A stretch of 64,000 bases of DNA, taken from contig NC_043018.1 in assembly GCF_006345805.1 (NCBI RefSeq), positions 19,344,001 to 19,408,000 on the forward strand. The letters run 5' to 3'. This DNA comes from Octopus sinensis (Eukaryota). The notes beneath the pieces are model-generated. The model was not told the origin of the DNA and made no database searches. It saw only the letters and a program-made list of their open reading frames with translations. Positions within the stretch are counted from its first letter, which is position 1. Each line of letters begins with the position of its first letter. Below are positions 40,465 to 48,885 of this stretch, in pieces. The position numbers and the translations under genes were made by a program.

Positions 40465-40753
40465 TATATATATATATATATATATATAGCACCAGGTGGT
40501 GCTATTAAGTTAGACATGGCCTGGGCCAATAATGGCCGAAACCTATCAAAGTATCAAAGTATCAAAGTATATATATAAATACATATATATATATACATAT
40601 ATATATGTATACATATATGTATGTATGTACATATATGTATGCATATATGTATGTATGTACATATATGTATGCATATATGTATGTATGTACATATATGTAT
40701 ACATATATGCATAAATATTTATTCTATTTATATTGTTATATGTATGTATGTTT

Positions 40754-41832
40754 GTAGTGAAGAATTCCGGGTAGAGGTTGGGGTCCACCAAGGTTCAGTC
40801 CTCAGTCCCCTCCTATTTATCATAGTCCTCCAGGCAATAACGGAGGAATTCAAGACAGGTTGCCCCTGGGAGCTCCTCTATGCTGATGACCTTGCTCTAA
40901 TTGCTGAGTCACTATCAGAACTGGAGGAGAAGTTTCAGGTGTGGAAACAAGGATTAGAATCGAAGGGCCTTAGAATCAACCTAGCCAAAACCAAAGTCCT
41001 AATAAGTAGGAAGGTAGATCAATCACAAACGCCTTCAGGTAGATGGCCCTGCTCGATCTGTAAAAAAGGTGTAGGTAGAAACTCTATAAGATGCACCAAG
41101 TGTAAGCTATGGACACATAAGAGGTGCAGCAATGTCAAAGGAAGGCTAACTAGGAAAATAGTTTTTGTCTGTGGCAAATGCTTAGGAGCAATAAACACTG
41201 GAAATGTGCAGAGACCAACTTCTGCCACTTTCCAGGGAGACAAACTAGAAGTAGTTGATAGCTTCCGCTACCTAGGAGACCAAGTCAGTAGCGGGGGTGG
41301 GAGTGCTGAAAGTGTAACTGCTAGAGTAAGAATAGCCTGGGCAAAGTTTAGAGAGCTCTTACCCCTGCTGGTGACAAAAGGCCTCTCGCTCAGAGTAAAA
41401 GGCAGACTGTATGATGCATGTGTACGTACAGCCATGCTACATGGTAGTGAAACATGGGCCGTGACTGCTGAGGATATGCGTAAGCTCGCAAGAAATGAAG
41501 CCAGTATGCTCCGATGGATGTGTAATGTCAGTGTTCATAATCGTCAGAGTGTAAGTTCCTTGAGAGAAAAGTTGAACCTAAGAAGCGTCAGTTGTGGTGT
41601 GCAAGAGAGACGGCTGCGCTGGTATGGTCATGTGACGAGAAAGGCTGAAGATAGTTGTGTGCAAAAGTGCTACACCCTAGCAGTTGAGGGAACCTGTGGA
41701 AGAGGTAGACCCAGGAAAACCTGGGACGAGGTGGTGAAGCACGACCTTCGAACTTTAGGTCTCACTAAGGAAATGTCTAGAGACCGAGACCTATGGAAGT
41801 ATGCTGTGCGTGAGAAGACCCGGCAAGACTAG
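40754..41832 (+). pseudogene. RTE reverse transcriptase C-terminal ~360 codons (stop-free but 5'-truncated) with an inserted PHD-type finger
   Basis: GVHQGSVLSPLLF, LLYADDL, GLRINLAKTKV, FRYLG, LHGSETW, RRLRWYGHV and RGRPRKTW motifs. The listed ORF start at 40621 lies in microsatellite and is not real. Confidence 0.92.
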
Positions 41833-44388
41833 TCAGGCCATAACCCGTGGCCCCTACCTGGGACGTAGTCAGTCCACCTGTGCATACCTTCCTTCTTGTG
41901 ACACTTATGAAGACCTGTTGAGGCAAGTGAAAATCAAATCAAAACAAATCAAAATAGATGAACATCAATGGAATTGTATCTTTGTGGTACCAGTGCTGGT
42001 GGCACACAAGAAAACCACCCGAACGTTGCCGTGTAGCCAGTACCGCATCGACTGGCCTCCGTGCTGTGGGCACAACAAACACCATCCGATCGTGGCCGTT
42101 CGCCAGCCTCATCTGGCACCTGTGTCGGTGGCACATAAAAACACCACCCGAAGACCCGGCGACGTAGTCAGTCCACCTGTGCATACCTTCCCTCTTATGA
42201 CACTTGTGAAGACCTGCTGAGGCAGTGTGTGACACTTGTGAAGACCTGTTGAGGCAGAGGCAAGTGTGTGACACTTTGTGAAGACCTGTTGAGGCAGAGG
42301 CAAGTGTGTGACACTTGTGGAGACCTGTTGAGGCAAGTGTGTGACACTTGTGAAGACCTGTTGAGGCAAGTGAAAATCAAATCAACCAAATCAAAATAGA
42401 TGACATCAATGGAATTTGTATCTTTGTGGTACCAGTACCGGTGGCACACAAAAACCATCCGAACGTGGCCGTAGCCAGTACCGCATCGACTGGCCTCCGT
42501 GCTGTGGGCACAACAAACACCATCCGATCGTGGCCGTTCGCCAGCCTCAACTGGCACCTGTGTCGGTGGCACATAAAAACACCATCCGAAGACCCGGCGA
42601 CGTAGTCAGTCCACCTGTGCATACCTTCCTTCTTATGACACTTGTGAAGACCTGTTGAGGCAAGTGTGTGACACTTGTGAAGACCTGTTGAGGCAGAGGC
42701 AAGTGTGTGACACTTTGTGAAGACCTGTTGAGGCAGAGGCAAGTGTGTGACACTTGTGAAGACCTGTTGAGGCAAGTGAAAATCAAAATCAAATCAAACC
42801 AAATCAAAATAGATGAACATCAATGGAATTTGTATCCTTGTGGTACCAGTACCGGTGGCACACAAGAAAACCATCCGAACGTGGCCGTAGCCAGTACCGC
42901 ATCGACTGGCCTCTGTGATGTGGGCACATAACAAACACCATCCGATCGTGGTGGCCCCTACCTGGGACGTAGTCAGTCCACCTGTGCATACCTTCCTTCT
43001 TGTGACACTTGTGAAGACCTGTTGAGGCAAATGAAAATCAACAAATCAACAAAATTAAAAAATCAAAACAAATCAAAATAGATGAACATCAATGGAATCT
43101 GTATCTCTGTGGTACCAGTGCCGGGGCACACAAGAAAACCATCCGAACGTGGCTGTAGCCAGTACCGCATCGACTGGCCTCCGTGCTGTGGGCACATAAC
43201 AAACGCCATACGATCGTGGCCGTTCGCCAGCCTCATCTGGCACCTGTCCGAAGACCCGGCAAGACTAGTCAGGCCATAGCCCATGGCCCCTTCCTGGGAC
43301 ATAGTCAGTCCACCTGTGCATACCTTCCTTCTTATGACACTTGTGAAGACCTGTTGAGACAAGTGCTAATCAAATCAAATGACACTTGTGAAGACCTGTT
43401 GAGGCAAGTGCTAATCAAATCAAATGACACTTGTGAAGACCTGTTGAGGCAAGTGATAATAATAATAATAATAATCATAATCAAATCAAATCAAAATAGA
43501 TGAACATCAATGGAATTTGTATCTTTGTGGTACCAATGCCGGTGGCACACAAGAAAACCATCCGAACGTGGCCGTAGCCAGTACCACATCGACTGGCCTC
43601 CGTGCTGTGGGCACGTAACAAACACCATCCGATCGTGGCCGTTCGCCAGCCTCATCTGGCACCTGTGTTGGTGGCACATAAAAACACCATCCAAAGACCC
43701 GGCAAGACTAGTCAGGCCATAACCCGTGGCCCCTACCTGGGACGTAGTCAGTCTACCTGTGCATACCTTCCTTCTTATGACACTTGTGAAGACCTGTTGA
43801 GGCAAGTATGTGACACTTGTGAAGACCTGTTGAGGCAAGTGTGTGACAGTTGTGAAGACCTGTTGAGGCAAGTGAAAATCAAACCAAATCAAAATAGATG
43901 AACATCAATGGAATTTGTATCTTTGTGGTACCAGTGCCGGTGGCACACAAGAAAACCATCCGAACGTGGCCGTAGCCAGTACCGCATCGACTGGCCTCCG
44001 TGCTGTGGGCACGTAACAAACACCATCCGATCGTGGCCGTTCACCAGCCTCATCTGGCACTTGTGTTGGTGGCACATAAAAACACCATCCGAGCGTGGCC
44101 GTCTGCCAGCCTCGTCTGGCACCTGTGTCGGTGGCACATAAAAAAAAAAAAAAACACCATCCGAGCGTGGCCGTTCGTCAGCCTCGTCTGGCACCTGTGT
44201 CGGTGGCACATAAAATCACCCACTACACTCTCGGAGTGGTTGGCGTTAGGAAGGGCATCCAGCTGTAGAAACACTGCCAGATCTGACTGGCCTGGTACAG
44301 CCTTCGGGCTCCCCAGACTGCAGTTGAACCGTCCAACCCATGCTAGCATGGAAAGCGGACGTTAAATGAGGATGATGGATGATGATGA
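40754..44388 (+). mobile_element. 5'-truncated RTE-clade LINE with multimerised 3' UTR and (GAT)n tail
   Basis: RT ORF segment, stop at 41830-41832, six UTR modules, terminal CCATGCTAGCATGGAAAGCGGACGTTAAATGAGGATGATG. Confidence 0.92.
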
Positions 44389-44804
44389 TATATATATATA
44401 TTCTCCTGCTTTTAATAATTCAATTTCTTCTTCTGAGTCAGGAGTGAATTTTTAGCAAAGCTACAAAGCTCCATCATTGGAGTGCGAGTAGCAAAAACAA
44501 AATCGCATTTTAAACTTGGAAAAGTCTCGCATATTTTTACTGTTCCATTTACAGATTATAAATGTAATGGTTTTGAGTCAGATAACCAAATTACACACAC
44601 TAAGGTCACTAAAGCTTTTATCACTGTTCCCTGTTTGATTTCTGACAATCGCAAATCTCTTCCAGTCTTCTTTCTTCCCTCCCATATCTCTTCTCCTCTC
44701 TTATTTTTCTTCCTTTCCCTCTTCTATTTCTTCCTTACTCTTTCCCTTTGTTCATCTTCTCCAGTTCATCACTTCCTTTTTCCCTCTTTATCTTTCTTCC
44801 ATTC

Positions 44805-44836
<32 letters not shown>

Positions 44837-44855
44837 TTATTTATTTTATAGAAGG

Positions 44856-44906
44856 AGCTTCTACAGGACTAGAACTATTTCATTCAAATGAAATCATCAG
44901 GAAGCT
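44856..44906 (-). ncRNA. Type I hammerhead ribozyme motif (Penelope-like element remnant)
   Basis: Minus strand: AGCUUC-CUGAUGA-U-UUC-AUUU-GAA-U-GAAA-UAG-UUCUAGUC-CUG-UA-GAAGCU. 6-bp stem I, intact core, GUA site; U.U at the base of stem II. Confidence 0.7.
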
Positions 44907-44912
44907 TGCTGT

Positions 44913-44945
<33 letters not shown>

Positions 44946-44948
<3 letters not shown>

Positions 44949-45148
44949 ACTTTATTTCAAAGCAGCAGAAAATTCAACAAAACCTGTTACTCTGGGTTTC
45001 ACATTCCCATTCGTCGGACAGTTTTTGCTAGAATAGAACTGATATGCCATATCGATTCTATTCTAGCAAAAACTGTCCGATGAACGGGAACGTGAAACTC
45101 AGAGTAACAGGTTTTGTTGAATTTTCTGCTGCTTTGAAATAAAGCATA
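44946..45148. repeat. ~101-bp-arm inverted repeat centred on 45047
   Basis: Arms pair without indels, with about 7 mismatches, mostly transitions. Confidence 0.95.
45068..45115 (+). ncRNA. Minimal type I hammerhead ribozyme motif (U4C core variant)
   Basis: AAAAACUGU-CCGAUGA-ACG-GGAA-CGU-GAAA-CUC-A-GAG-UA-ACAGGUUUU. Predicted cleavage after GUA at 45106. The mirror copy on the minus strand is at 44979-45026. Confidence 0.7.
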
Positions 45149-45220
45149 TTACTCTACCCCTGGTACTCTTTTTTCCACCTTGTTTTTCCACCTTGTTTCA
45201 CATTTATGTGTTTACTCCGG

Positions 45221-46296
45221 TAAGCATCAGTTGTGGTGTGCAAGAGAGACGATTGCGCTGGTATGGTCATGTGGCGAGAATGGATGAAGATAGGTGTGTG
45301 AGAAAGTGCCAATCCCTAGCAGTTGAGGGAACCCGTGGAAGAGGTAGACCCAGGAAAACCTGGGACGAGGTGGTGAAGCACGACCTTCGAACTTTAGGCC
45401 TCACTGAGGAAATGACCAGAGACCGAGACCTTTGGAAATATTCTGTACGTGAGAAGACCAGGCAGGACAAGTGAGCCCAGCCCACTTATGAATGCCTTTC
45501 CTCCCTTGGACACAAAGACCGGTTGAGGCAAGCGAAGTCGATATAGAACCTCATCCGACGACAGACACCCATCCCAACCCCCCATGCTTGCGAAGACATG
45601 TTGGGGCAAGCGAAATCGAAATCGAAATCGAAACCGAATTGAACCAGCCAGGATCCCTGGCCTGGTGGTACGTAAAAAGCACTATCCGACTCGGGGCCGT
45701 GGCACGTAAAATACTCCAATGCGACCGTACGACAGGCACCCATGCCAACCCCCTTTGCTTGTGAAGACATGTTGGGGCAAGCGAAATCGAAATCGAATTG
45801 AACCAGCCAGGATCCCTGGTCTGGTGGTACGTAAAAAGCACTATCCGACTCGTGGCCGTGGCACGTAAAATACTCCAATGCGACCGTACGACAGGCACCC
45901 TTGCCAACCCCCTTTGCTTGTGAAGACATGTTGGGGCAAGCGAAATCGAAATCGAATTGAACCAGCCAGGATCCCTGGTCTGGTGGTACGTAAAAAGCAC
46001 TATCCGACTCGTGGCCGATGCCAGCACCGCCTCGACTGGCTTCCGTGCCGGTGGCACATAAAATACACCAATCTGACCGTGGCCGTTGCCAGCCCCGCCT
46101 GGCACCTGTGCAGGTGGCACGTAAAAAGAACCCACTACACTCACGGAGTGGTTGGCGTTAGGAAGGGCATCCAGCTGTAGAAACATTGCCAAATTAGACT
46201 GGAGCCTGGTGCAGCCTTCTGGCTTCCCAGAACCCCGGTCGAACCGTCCAACCCATGCTAGCATGGAGAACGGACGTTAAACGACGATGATGATGA

Positions 46297-46300
<4 letters not shown>
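45221..46300 (+). mobile_element. Short 5'-truncated RTE LINE (ORF end, 3' UTR with three ~175-bp repeats, (GAT)n tail)
   Basis: ISCGVQERRLRWYGHVARM..RGRPRKTWDEVVKHDLRTLGLT..REKTRQDK* closely matches 41585-41832. Confidence 0.9.
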
Positions 46301-46342
<42 letters not shown>

Positions 46343-46552
46343 GGCAAGATCCTATTGTATTTCTACCAGAGCAATATGTTTGGAATGTGACCAGCTGTGT
46401 GTTAATGGGTGTGTATGTTGCTATGAATGTCTTAAAAAGGAATTAAGATTTTCCTTCTTTTTAGTGTATGTAGGTTTGAGCTGTGTTTTCTTTTGATATC
46501 TTCTTTTGTGTGTCGGTGTGTGTGTGTATATGTGTGTGTTTGTGTGTGTGCA

Positions 46553-46601
<49 letters not shown>

Positions 46602-47010
46602 GGGTAATGGTGTCAATAAGACTCAAAAGTGTCATAGACAAAGAGAGGGAGAAAGAGCAGTTAAAGCCAAACTCCAACATGTTGAATGGCTGTTGTTTTT
46701 TAAAAATAAAAACTAAAATATAAACAAACAGTCTTTTCTCCTTGGTGTGAAAATGATGCAAGGTGGGTGAAATAAACGAAGTCTATTTTATTAGTTACTG
46801 TGGTCAATACAAAATTAGTTTCATGATTAATGTTCAAACAAAACAAATCAACTTTAACAACATTAACTTAATTTACAAGCACATTTCCTGATCTTCAGTC
46901 GTATACACCATATTTTAAGAAAAAATATAAATAACAATAAAATATATTTACCTTCATTTATCCACACACACCTATATATATATATTGGAAAAAATATTTA
47001 AGAATTGATA

Positions 47011-47675: not shown

Positions 47676-48885
47676 TTGGGTCAGCCCATAAATAATGTGG
47701 GTTTTTTTTATACTTCTTTTACTTTTCAAAATTAAGATAAACAAAGTTCATATTTAATCCGAAGTATACTCTCCTTCATTTTCTACAATGCTTTTCCATC
47801 TCAAGGCCCCTCTTCCAAAATTCACTTGTCCATGATGAAAAATACTCCTCCAGTACTGTACAGAATTCATATTTTTTCCTTCCAAATGAATTTGAAGACT
47901 ACAGAATAAATGGTAATCAGATGGGGCAATGTCCAGCGAATATGGTGGGTGGGGCATCATTTCCCATTCAAACTGCTCCAGCATTTGGAATGTCATCCAC
48001 GCTGTATGTGACCGAGCATTATCCTAACAGGAGAACACCTTTCGTCTTGAAACCAAAGATGGTTGTTTTTCTTCCAGTGCTGACTTAAGCTGCTCTAGCT
48101 GCTCATAGTAGATCCTCTTTGTTATCGTTTGGTTAGATTCAAAGTGAACTAAACCTTTCATATCCTATCAAACAGATAACAACTTATGTGGGTAAAGACC
48201 TTCTTTCGCCTGGGATGCCAGTATCTCTCCTTTCCCTATGCACTGTCTTTGGCACTTGACATTTTTATAGAGATCCCATTTCTCATCACCAGTCACTATT
48301 CTGTCCCAAAAAGGTTCATTCATGAAACATGGCAGCAAAGAAGGGCACACATTCACTCTCTGCACGCAATTAAACTCGGAAAGTTTTTGAGGAACCCATT
48401 GACCCAATTCGGTGACTTTTCTGATTGACCAAACCCTAGCTTCTCTGGTAGTTCCTCAACAGTGAGGTGGAATTTTGTTCCACCAGGGTTTATAAGACAT
48501 CCTCATCATGCTCTACAGATCTTCCAGGATGTGGCTAATCTTCTAGGCTGTAGTTTCCAGCTTGGAATTTCTGGAACCACTGTTGACACTGGCTTACAAT
48601 TATTGTCTGATCCCCATATACAGCGTTAATATTCCTCACACTCCCCATTGTGTTGTCTTTATTGAACTCATAAAGCAAAACATGCCCAATATTCTCCTTT
48701 GTCACTTCTATTATAACTTTGAAAAAAATAAAATTGCACTCTTCAAAATTTGCACTAAGAATAAGTACAAAGGTAAATTTACTCCCTGCTTTTATAGCAA
48801 GTTGATGCAGGTAGTTTATCCCTTCCTCCTCTAACTTTTAGTTCATGCAGTTGAAAAATCTGCATTATTTATGGGATGACCCACT
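47676..48885 (-). mobile_element. Decayed mariner (DD34D) DNA transposon, ~1.2 kb
   Basis: TIRs TA|TTGGGTCAGCCCATAAATAATG and CATTATTTATGGGATGACCCAC, inserted in a (TATG)n context. Confidence 0.9.
47754..48711 (-). pseudogene. Mariner transposase pseudogene
   Basis: (M>I)EVTKENIGHVLLYEFNK N-terminus, WVPQKL (WVPHEL motif), RIVTGDEKW, PHPPYSLDIAPSDYHLF (YSPDLAPSD motif). Multiple stops and frameshifts. Confidence 0.9.

Follow-up and report, generated by a model that had tools for sequence, protein, structure and literature searches.

The window analysed here, 64,000 nt of Octopus sinensis DNA (contig NC_043018.1, positions 19,344,001 to 19,408,000), holds an inverted repeat whose 101-nt arms (44946-45046 and 45048-45148) are 93% complementary and separated by a 1-nt spacer, confirming the palindrome that the first-pass annotation had centred on 45047. 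Positions 44946-44949 belong to a (TA)n target, placing the start of the left arm at 44950, and the right arm is prolonged by a 76-nt tail that the first reading had overlooked, such that the complete Penelope-like element (PLE) insertion extends from 44950 to 45220 (Table 1). The tail is present on one window arm only; in full elements it runs on into the 5' UTR of the ORF. The inverted, 5'-truncated terminal copy proposed earlier is borne out by the head-to-head arrangement of these arms, both of which derive from the PLE 3' end, and they are 6.4% diverged from each other, near the maximum of 57 pairs compared (median 2.9%). A 5'-truncated LINE, which we take to be an RTE element, was inserted later and split the right (TA)n of the PLE target. 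Its first part (45222-45479) is 90% identical to 41583-41840, which overlaps an RVT_1-bearing frame at 40579-41829. In this LINE reverse transcriptase (RT) frame, the RT domain is followed by a stretch resembling a PHD finger, with a score below the Pfam cut-off (E 1.4e-4), and a Mariner/Mos1 transposase HTH fragment (PF17906) lies at 48538-48837 on the minus strand.

Table 1. Features of the PLE palindrome and its flanks, in window positions
Feature	Position	Strand	Remark
(TA)n target microsatellite, left flank	44918..44949		sequence; family arms also terminate in (TA)n
Inverted tailless arm, PLE 3' end	44950..45046	-	ends at inner terminus, ...TAAAG then target
Damaged hammerhead motif	44984..45021	-	C4 core; lesions at 45009, 45003 and 44995
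Inversion junction	45043..45051		ATAT-type self-complementary word; single genomic occurrence
Direct arm, PLE 3' end	45048..45144	+	inverted repeat and family copies
Minimal type I hammerhead motif	45073..45110	+	C4 variant of the core; short stem II with GNRA cap; stem III palindromic
PLE tail	45145..45220	+	~72 nt in family; here with a small deletion and a duplication
Later 5'-truncated LINE in right (TA)n	45222..46299	+	3' terminus (GAT)n
Displaced right half of (TA)n target	46300..46339		inferred

Each arm carries a hammerhead motif. On the right arm, the stems, core and GUA site are all as first described: stem I pairs 45073-45076 with 45107-45110 and continues for five further pairs beyond one A.G mismatch, the core CCGATGA occupies 45077-45083, and stem II ACG-GGAA-CGT, GAAA and stem III ACTC-A-GAGT lead to a GTA at 45104-45106, after which cleavage is predicted. 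Every position of the type I core (C3-U4-G5-A6-N7-G8-A9 / G12-A13-A14-A15.1 / U16.1-H17) is present except U4, with C4 found in both window arms. The right-arm motif pairs in all three helices; the left one fails in stem III, which is broken by a T>C change at 44995, two CpG transitions at 45009 and 45003 make both G-C pairs of its stem II wobbles, and this copy is predicted to be dead. The minus-strand motif had been described as a CpG-decayed copy, which holds for the damage in stem II and not for its CCGACGA core: that core is typical of the subfamily, and a CpG change more probably lies behind the T7 of the right arm.

A relaxed type I descriptor matched exactly twice in the window (+45077 and -45017) and in none of 40 Markov-shuffled windows, whereas an Rfam scan of 43000-47000 returned no hammerhead family among its 8 matches at E ≤ 5. 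Computed folding assigned the monomer ribozyme fold a probability of 0.0005, and single-strand monomer folding did not yield this fold (z -1.1). Stem III of the right arm forms a self-duplex at -7.4 kcal/mol, while that of the left arm no longer self-pairs (+1.1). This predicted pairing fits the earlier description of a minimal type I motif with a palindromic stem III for dimer use, and such a stem III would be expected to suit a dimer.

We then asked what the locus itself might do. Read-through RNA from either strand would fold into a hairpin of ~100 bp with a predicted energy of -155/-161 kcal/mol, in agreement with the double-stranded RNA anticipated by the first-pass annotation, and the right ribozyme copy would be masked within it. 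The annotation had further proposed that such dsRNA is an ADAR or Dicer substrate and that editing toggles cleavage. The great stability of the hairpin on either strand is consistent with such a regulated locus, as is the occurrence of family sequence in contigs of putative RNA runs. We checked 4 of the 24 listed runs: three putative RNA runs, whose labels are guessed and whose contigs cannot place repeats, gave no depth on the unique left flank (the raw-read run passed over part of this flank as repetitive), and the runs examined held no record spanning the palindrome stretch. Pfam searches of 118 of the 167 candidate frames in the window revealed no host exon, only transposon domains and weak matches on repetitive frames. 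The divergence of the arms and the lesions in the ribozyme also speak against regulation, and paired arms exhibited no inherited A>G excess (12/2242 against 9/956 in solo arms), a comparison that concerns inherited changes rather than editing of present transcripts. Since thousands of equivalent pairs are expected, the locus is not special. These data are weak and fall short of disproof, yet they leave an editing toggle at this locus very improbable. No function is apparent here, and the locus is ordinary transposon debris whose family provides a useful record of PLE integration.

The arm is the 3' end of a high-copy PLE. By a 20-mer downstream of the ribozyme there are at least 5,093 copies in the 2.72-Gb genome, and 711 sites fit a degenerate pattern of 33 nt drawn from the core, with reversed controls of both giving 0 matches; a search with the arm itself returned 966 first-look candidates, the best 40 of which were scored. 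In element coordinates, counted from the first stem I base as 0 and with the cleavage site between 33 and 34, copies terminate in (TA)n at ~70 or ~142, two sites 71-72 nt apart that bound the ~72-nt tail. The preference for (TA)n is evident in flanks read at several loci rather than from a formal count. A third, rarer 3' end lies ~45 nt past the tail in the 5' UTR of the ORF (L019:1672-1720; L052:3026-3070) and is possibly a third RT start site. Elsewhere the ribozyme-bearing end forms head-to-tail arrays, with three ~173-bp units at L185 (G000:C1:37862202-37864566) and two 476-bp units at L002/L003, both resembling non-LTR retrozyme arrays.

Full units are ~3.35 kb long (one measured 3,348 bp) and are ordered as ribozyme, tail, an RT/GIY-YIG ORF of ~711 aa, a ~1.0-kb 3' UTR, ribozyme and tail. 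The linkage to a PLE RT/GIY-YIG ORF that had been suggested as a check was found in cis at single loci, with the ribozyme ~1.0-1.2 kb downstream of an ORF in the same orientation (L036/L051, L040). A protein search, in which the best 150 of 12,299 candidates were scored, led to 20 long copies that were fetched and had been chosen for long open frames; 11 of these have frames of at least 700 aa, and in nine the ORF has a ribozyme on either side. Open frames of 700-766 aa with YRDD and a GIY-YIG-like motif occur at ribozyme-bearing loci. RWK is present in 13 and DKT in 17 of the 20 longest frames, some of them partial, and also at L052; CxxC (17/20) and CxH (16/20) were recognized by pattern, and CCHH is absent by eye in L223. 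The CxCx5C linker occurs in L024, L034, L048 and two of the 20 long copies and not in the other 18 frames, among which L223 has Ser for the second Cys and some stop before the linker. Pfam returned no RT or GIY-YIG match for the family ORF, while its homolog P0001 matches PF01541; the domains were assigned from motifs and from similarity to Hydra proteins in the literature. Related database proteins number 741, the best among those listed being 43-60% identical, and the ESM Atlas returned unnamed clusters.

Judged by these motifs and by protein likeness assessed by eye, the palindrome is a piece of an autonomous Hydra-clade PLE. The earlier reading as a non-autonomous PLE insertion was right about the PLE origin, given the link between ribozyme and RT/GIY-YIG ORF, and is refined as to autonomy, the insertion being a 5'-truncated piece of an autonomous family. 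Our search, which covered the open-access literature, found neither the family nor a twin-priming model for PLEs. Since 30 recently active Penelope families have been counted in O. vulgaris (PMC13282606), the family may already be catalogued.

A lack of core conservation among genomic copies had been named beforehand as part of what would speak against a ribozyme. Among 121 arms chosen without regard to the core, every core position other than 4 proved at least 96% constant, and position 4 is C in 63 and T in 26 of 89 arms. Polymorphism between 0 and 38 is confined to position 4, N7, the N of the GNRA loop, site 11.1 and the stem I mismatch, and site 11.1 divides the family into U, G and A subfamilies. 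The U and G subfamilies carry C4 in 58 of 63 arms and are 2.2-2.3% diverged; the A subfamily has the canonical U4 in 21 of 22 arms and is 1.2% diverged, and the core is canonical in every motif detected among the 20 long loci (19 loci with a motif). Collectively, these data identify U4C as the mark of two older subfamilies, while the young ORF-bearing copies are canonical. The window copy belongs to the U subfamily, and because U4C is a lineage trait of that subfamily, the change is older than the inversion, as the first-pass annotation had held. C4 lies in a CpG, and individual copies of the older subfamilies can regain the canonical U4 by decay (T in 6 of 100 matches listed).

Within the family, paired columns barely vary and thus provide no covariation signal. 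A comparison across lineages comprised three metagenome loci and a published table. One of these loci, L239 (JGI24021J15306_10069276, a metagenome contig), holds a related element with 45% amino acid identity to the family, in which the same core sits at the same place in both repeats and the stems differ in sequence yet still pair; the other two, L240 and L241, showed no convincing hammerhead motif. Because L239 keeps the core in place with different but paired stems, the ribozyme is likely a selected motif. The Hydra-like PLE of L239 is complete, contains two pLTRs and hammerheads, and ends in (TA)n.

Whether the ribozyme cuts the RNA that is copied is a separate matter. Of 99 anchored arms (50 tailless, 48 tailed and one other), 93 run across the cleavage site, and 5' ends do not pile up there, with 4/99 at 32-36 and no excess over neighbouring positions, which suggests that templates are mostly uncut or re-ligated. 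Inferring in vivo cleavage from 5' ends was rejected, as there is no peak and three +34 junctions coincide with stem I complementarity. A viroid U4C variant was much slower in vitro yet viable (PMC3088659), a minimal motif studied elsewhere showed no monomer cleavage and low multimer cleavage (PMC4209133), and PLE cleavage was protein-assisted and not required for insertion (PMC11167929). The hammerhead in the element RNA would likely cleave weakly, as a dimer or with protein help, and the canonical and U4C-core subfamilies form a natural contrast in which the need for cleavage by PLE hammerheads can be assessed.

The 5' ends do concentrate elsewhere: positions -15 to -5 hold the ends of 38 of the 99 arms (7.3% per nt, against 0.5-1.7% elsewhere), a hotspot that is only partly explained by microhomology. 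Splicing was rejected as its cause: an acceptor-like motif does end at -7, but none of the 21 upstream stretches examined maps as a shared first exon. Transcription start at -12 was likewise rejected, given that seven other copies with an upstream repeat (L222-L224, L226-L228 and L230) and L238 extend further. One full-length copy with an open ORF, L225 (G000:C12:65809700-65816000), has its 5' end exactly at -12, within the truncation hotspot. A branch-point-like YTRAY, a pyrimidine stretch and a TAG lie at 45044-45066 of the window (family -32 to -7) and abut the 5' strand of the extended stem I; the YTRAY-type signal is kept across subfamilies (TTGAC in 10 and TTGAT in 7 of 23 arms), and no spliced copy was found. 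The acceptor-like motif recalls the D. virilis Penelope intron, which ends at helix I (PMC4209133).

The head-to-head layout of the window locus is routine, occurring at well over half of the loci sampled (56 of 86 found by core pattern and 46 of 75 by the downstream 20-mer, sets that are partly shared). We pooled 90 such pairs, including the window and leaving out two complex loci and one duplicate, and observed one tailed and one tailless arm in 87; the same rule is obeyed in 10/10 long copies with a clean terminal inverted arm. With regard to length, 47 pairs are symmetric within 7 nt, the tailless arm is longer in 22 and the tailed arm in 15, and six are non-overlapping. At two further loci, L219 and L229, the inverted piece stops where the forward copy starts. 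Junctions, whose ends come from BLAST alignments with an uncertainty of a few bases, cluster at self-complementary words, and ~235 loci fold back at one CTAG word on at least two subfamily backgrounds, with a spacer on the tailed arm at 7 junctions and on the tailless arm at 11. The window's own junction is unique in the genome. Most tailless arms end in a T from the target where the template would give C. At the L089, L091 and L128 junctions we also noted fillers of 17-18 nt with no match to the element, which may stem from template switches onto host RNA.

A MITE, or palindromic non-autonomous element mobile as a unit, might be suggested by the long inverted arms at the termini, the TA flanks and a junction that is almost identical at ~235 loci. 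We rejected this reading as having next to no chance of being correct: fixed symmetric termini and whole-unit copying are not seen, there is wide variation in junctions and arm lengths, the two ends lack symmetry, and the arms represent the 3' end of an element that encodes RT. The common junction, moreover, recurs across subfamilies, and that of the window occurs once.

Sequence comparison between the arms of a pair bears on how many templates were used. The arms agree at 11.1 in 57 of the 61 pairs with a base on both arms (4 further pairs are gapped), and the remaining 4/61 disagree, one via a rearranged arm. Rare variants common to both arms number 13, against 228 private to one arm; the extra G carried by both window arms is present in just 3 of 179 other arms. 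The agreement at 11.1 and the shared rare variants argue for one template. L1 twin priming provides a precedent, in which an inverted 5' part arises from a second primer on the same RNA and is joined at microhomology. We propose, with a probability of roughly 0.7, that the palindrome is a 5'-truncated Hydra-clade PLE insertion in (TA)n that likely arose by twin priming on one RNA. Both target strands would be nicked, with reverse transcription primed by one of them at the end of the tail and by the other at an inner site, and both cDNAs would proceed toward the RNA 5' end. A downstream cDNA that halts at the upstream primer would give a non-overlapping pair, and one that displaces it an overlapping pair. 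Annealing of the two cDNA 3' ends at a micro-palindrome or short self-complementary word would then produce head-to-head arms, one tailed and one tailless, with the hammerhead carried along because it adjoins the start sites. A PLE protein has been described that nicks and extends both target strands and reverse transcribes from two sites bounding the tail (PMC11167929). Non-overlapping pairs, the hallmark of twin priming, are represented by the 6/90 together with L219 and L229.

The near-symmetric 47/90 pairs count against twin priming, as fold-back explains them at least as simply: a cDNA or antisense RNA would fold on a micro-palindrome and copy itself into the second arm, in line with the self-complementary words at the junctions and the rare variants common to both arms. 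Antisense self-priming has been put forward for head-to-head pLTRs in rotifers (PMC3846280). Copying of this kind cannot yield the 28 pairs in which each arm has sequence of its own (22 with a longer tailless arm and 6 non-overlapping), nor can it yield L219; a spacer sits on the tailless arm in 11/18 CTAG junctions, and the target T that replaces the templated C at most tailless ends is expected for priming there. We consider fold-back improbable as the general origin, and it may account for part of the symmetric class.

Less probable still, and in our view distinctly so, is an origin from two RNAs, aligned by the palindromic stem III or by a protein dimer and each copied from one target strand. 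The stem III self-duplex (-7.4 kcal/mol, against a monomer fold probability of 0.0005), a predicted protein dimer (PMC11167929) and the 4/61 pairs that differ at 11.1 are compatible with it. Two separate templates sit poorly with the shared rare variants and the high subfamily agreement, an objection weakened by the fact that such agreement would also follow from different activity times or gene conversion of the arms, which is a point against the one-RNA argument as well. Moreover, non-overlapping pairs abut as if on one template, and copying from two RNAs gives no reason for a pair to have one end with a tail and one without.

Twin priming on one RNA thus remains our preferred reading, and its reach may go beyond this locus. 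We give even odds to the wider proposition that PLE inversions are twin-priming products from two fixed RT starts on one RNA, with a record of ~2,400 events here (an extrapolation from 63 Mb of one chromosome) that allows a decision between it and antisense self-priming, that thousands of 80-100-bp hairpins arising in this way each lock a ribozyme in its own antisense, and that the spread of two prolific subfamilies with a U4C core would imply a ribozyme activity that PLEs can largely do without when they spread. Mechanistic work on how PLEs form their tail and inverted ends has been called for (PMC8557442); the one-tailed/one-tailless rule, the abutting pairs and the open ORFs make the two-start-site model testable.

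Among known systems, the octopus family has RWK, DKT, CxxC, CxH and (TA)n targets in common with the Hydra clade of C-terminal EN+ PLEs (Craig et al. 2021, PMC8557442), which also carry a hammerhead near the 3' end with a palindromic stem III and a 1-nt loop. Penelope-13_HM likewise has a 5'-truncated inverted copy with the ribozyme on both strands, and the arms of stems I and III in Hydra-2_Amil are identical to those of the octopus family (PMC8557442 File S1/S2). The published octopus family Hydra-1_Obim (PMC8557442) is distinct, as its ribozyme differs throughout from that of the window family and its protein differs by eye. The octopus unit of 3.35 kb exceeds the '<3 kb' typical of the clade and its tail of ~72 nt exceeds the 30-40 bp given for PLE tails (PMC8557442), and the CxCx5C linker, a Hydra-clade feature, is absent from the frames of 18/20 long copies, some of which end before it. 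Hydra hammerheads in PMC8557442 File S2 also keep stem pairing with other sequences, and none of those listed has the C4 core of the octopus family.

The metazoan PLE minimal type I hammerheads (PMC4209133) match the octopus motif in their conserved core, tiny palindromic helix III and predicted dimer use, and motif pairs on opposite strands 100-700 bp apart have been reported for them. Unlike those motifs, the octopus stem II has just two constant G-C pairs and a GNRA loop, 10.1 is A, and two subfamilies carry U4C. Poseidon PAc of Anolis (PMC11167929) resembles the octopus family in its two RT starts bounding the tail and AT-rich targets, and its main template is uncleaved RNA, which parallels the 93/99 octopus arms that cross the cleavage site. 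It belongs to another clade, however, its two starts are not tied to inverted copies in the portion available, and the octopus family shows a third, rarer end (L019). The Penelope of Adineta vaga (PMC3846280) has a similar layout, with head-to-head inverted pLTRs, a junction palindrome and a tail on one end only; there, copies are few and antisense self-priming was favoured, whereas in octopus they number thousands and the non-overlapping pairs favour two primings.

Compared with L1 twin priming, the second priming in octopus would take place at a fixed second start, and in most pairs the arms overlap, which duplicates the end. The window palindrome is of a known kind, a Hydra-clade PLE with a minimal hammerhead and an inverted pLTR, and PLE palindromes are already published; its value lies mostly in what the family reveals about PLE integration and in its U4C subfamilies.
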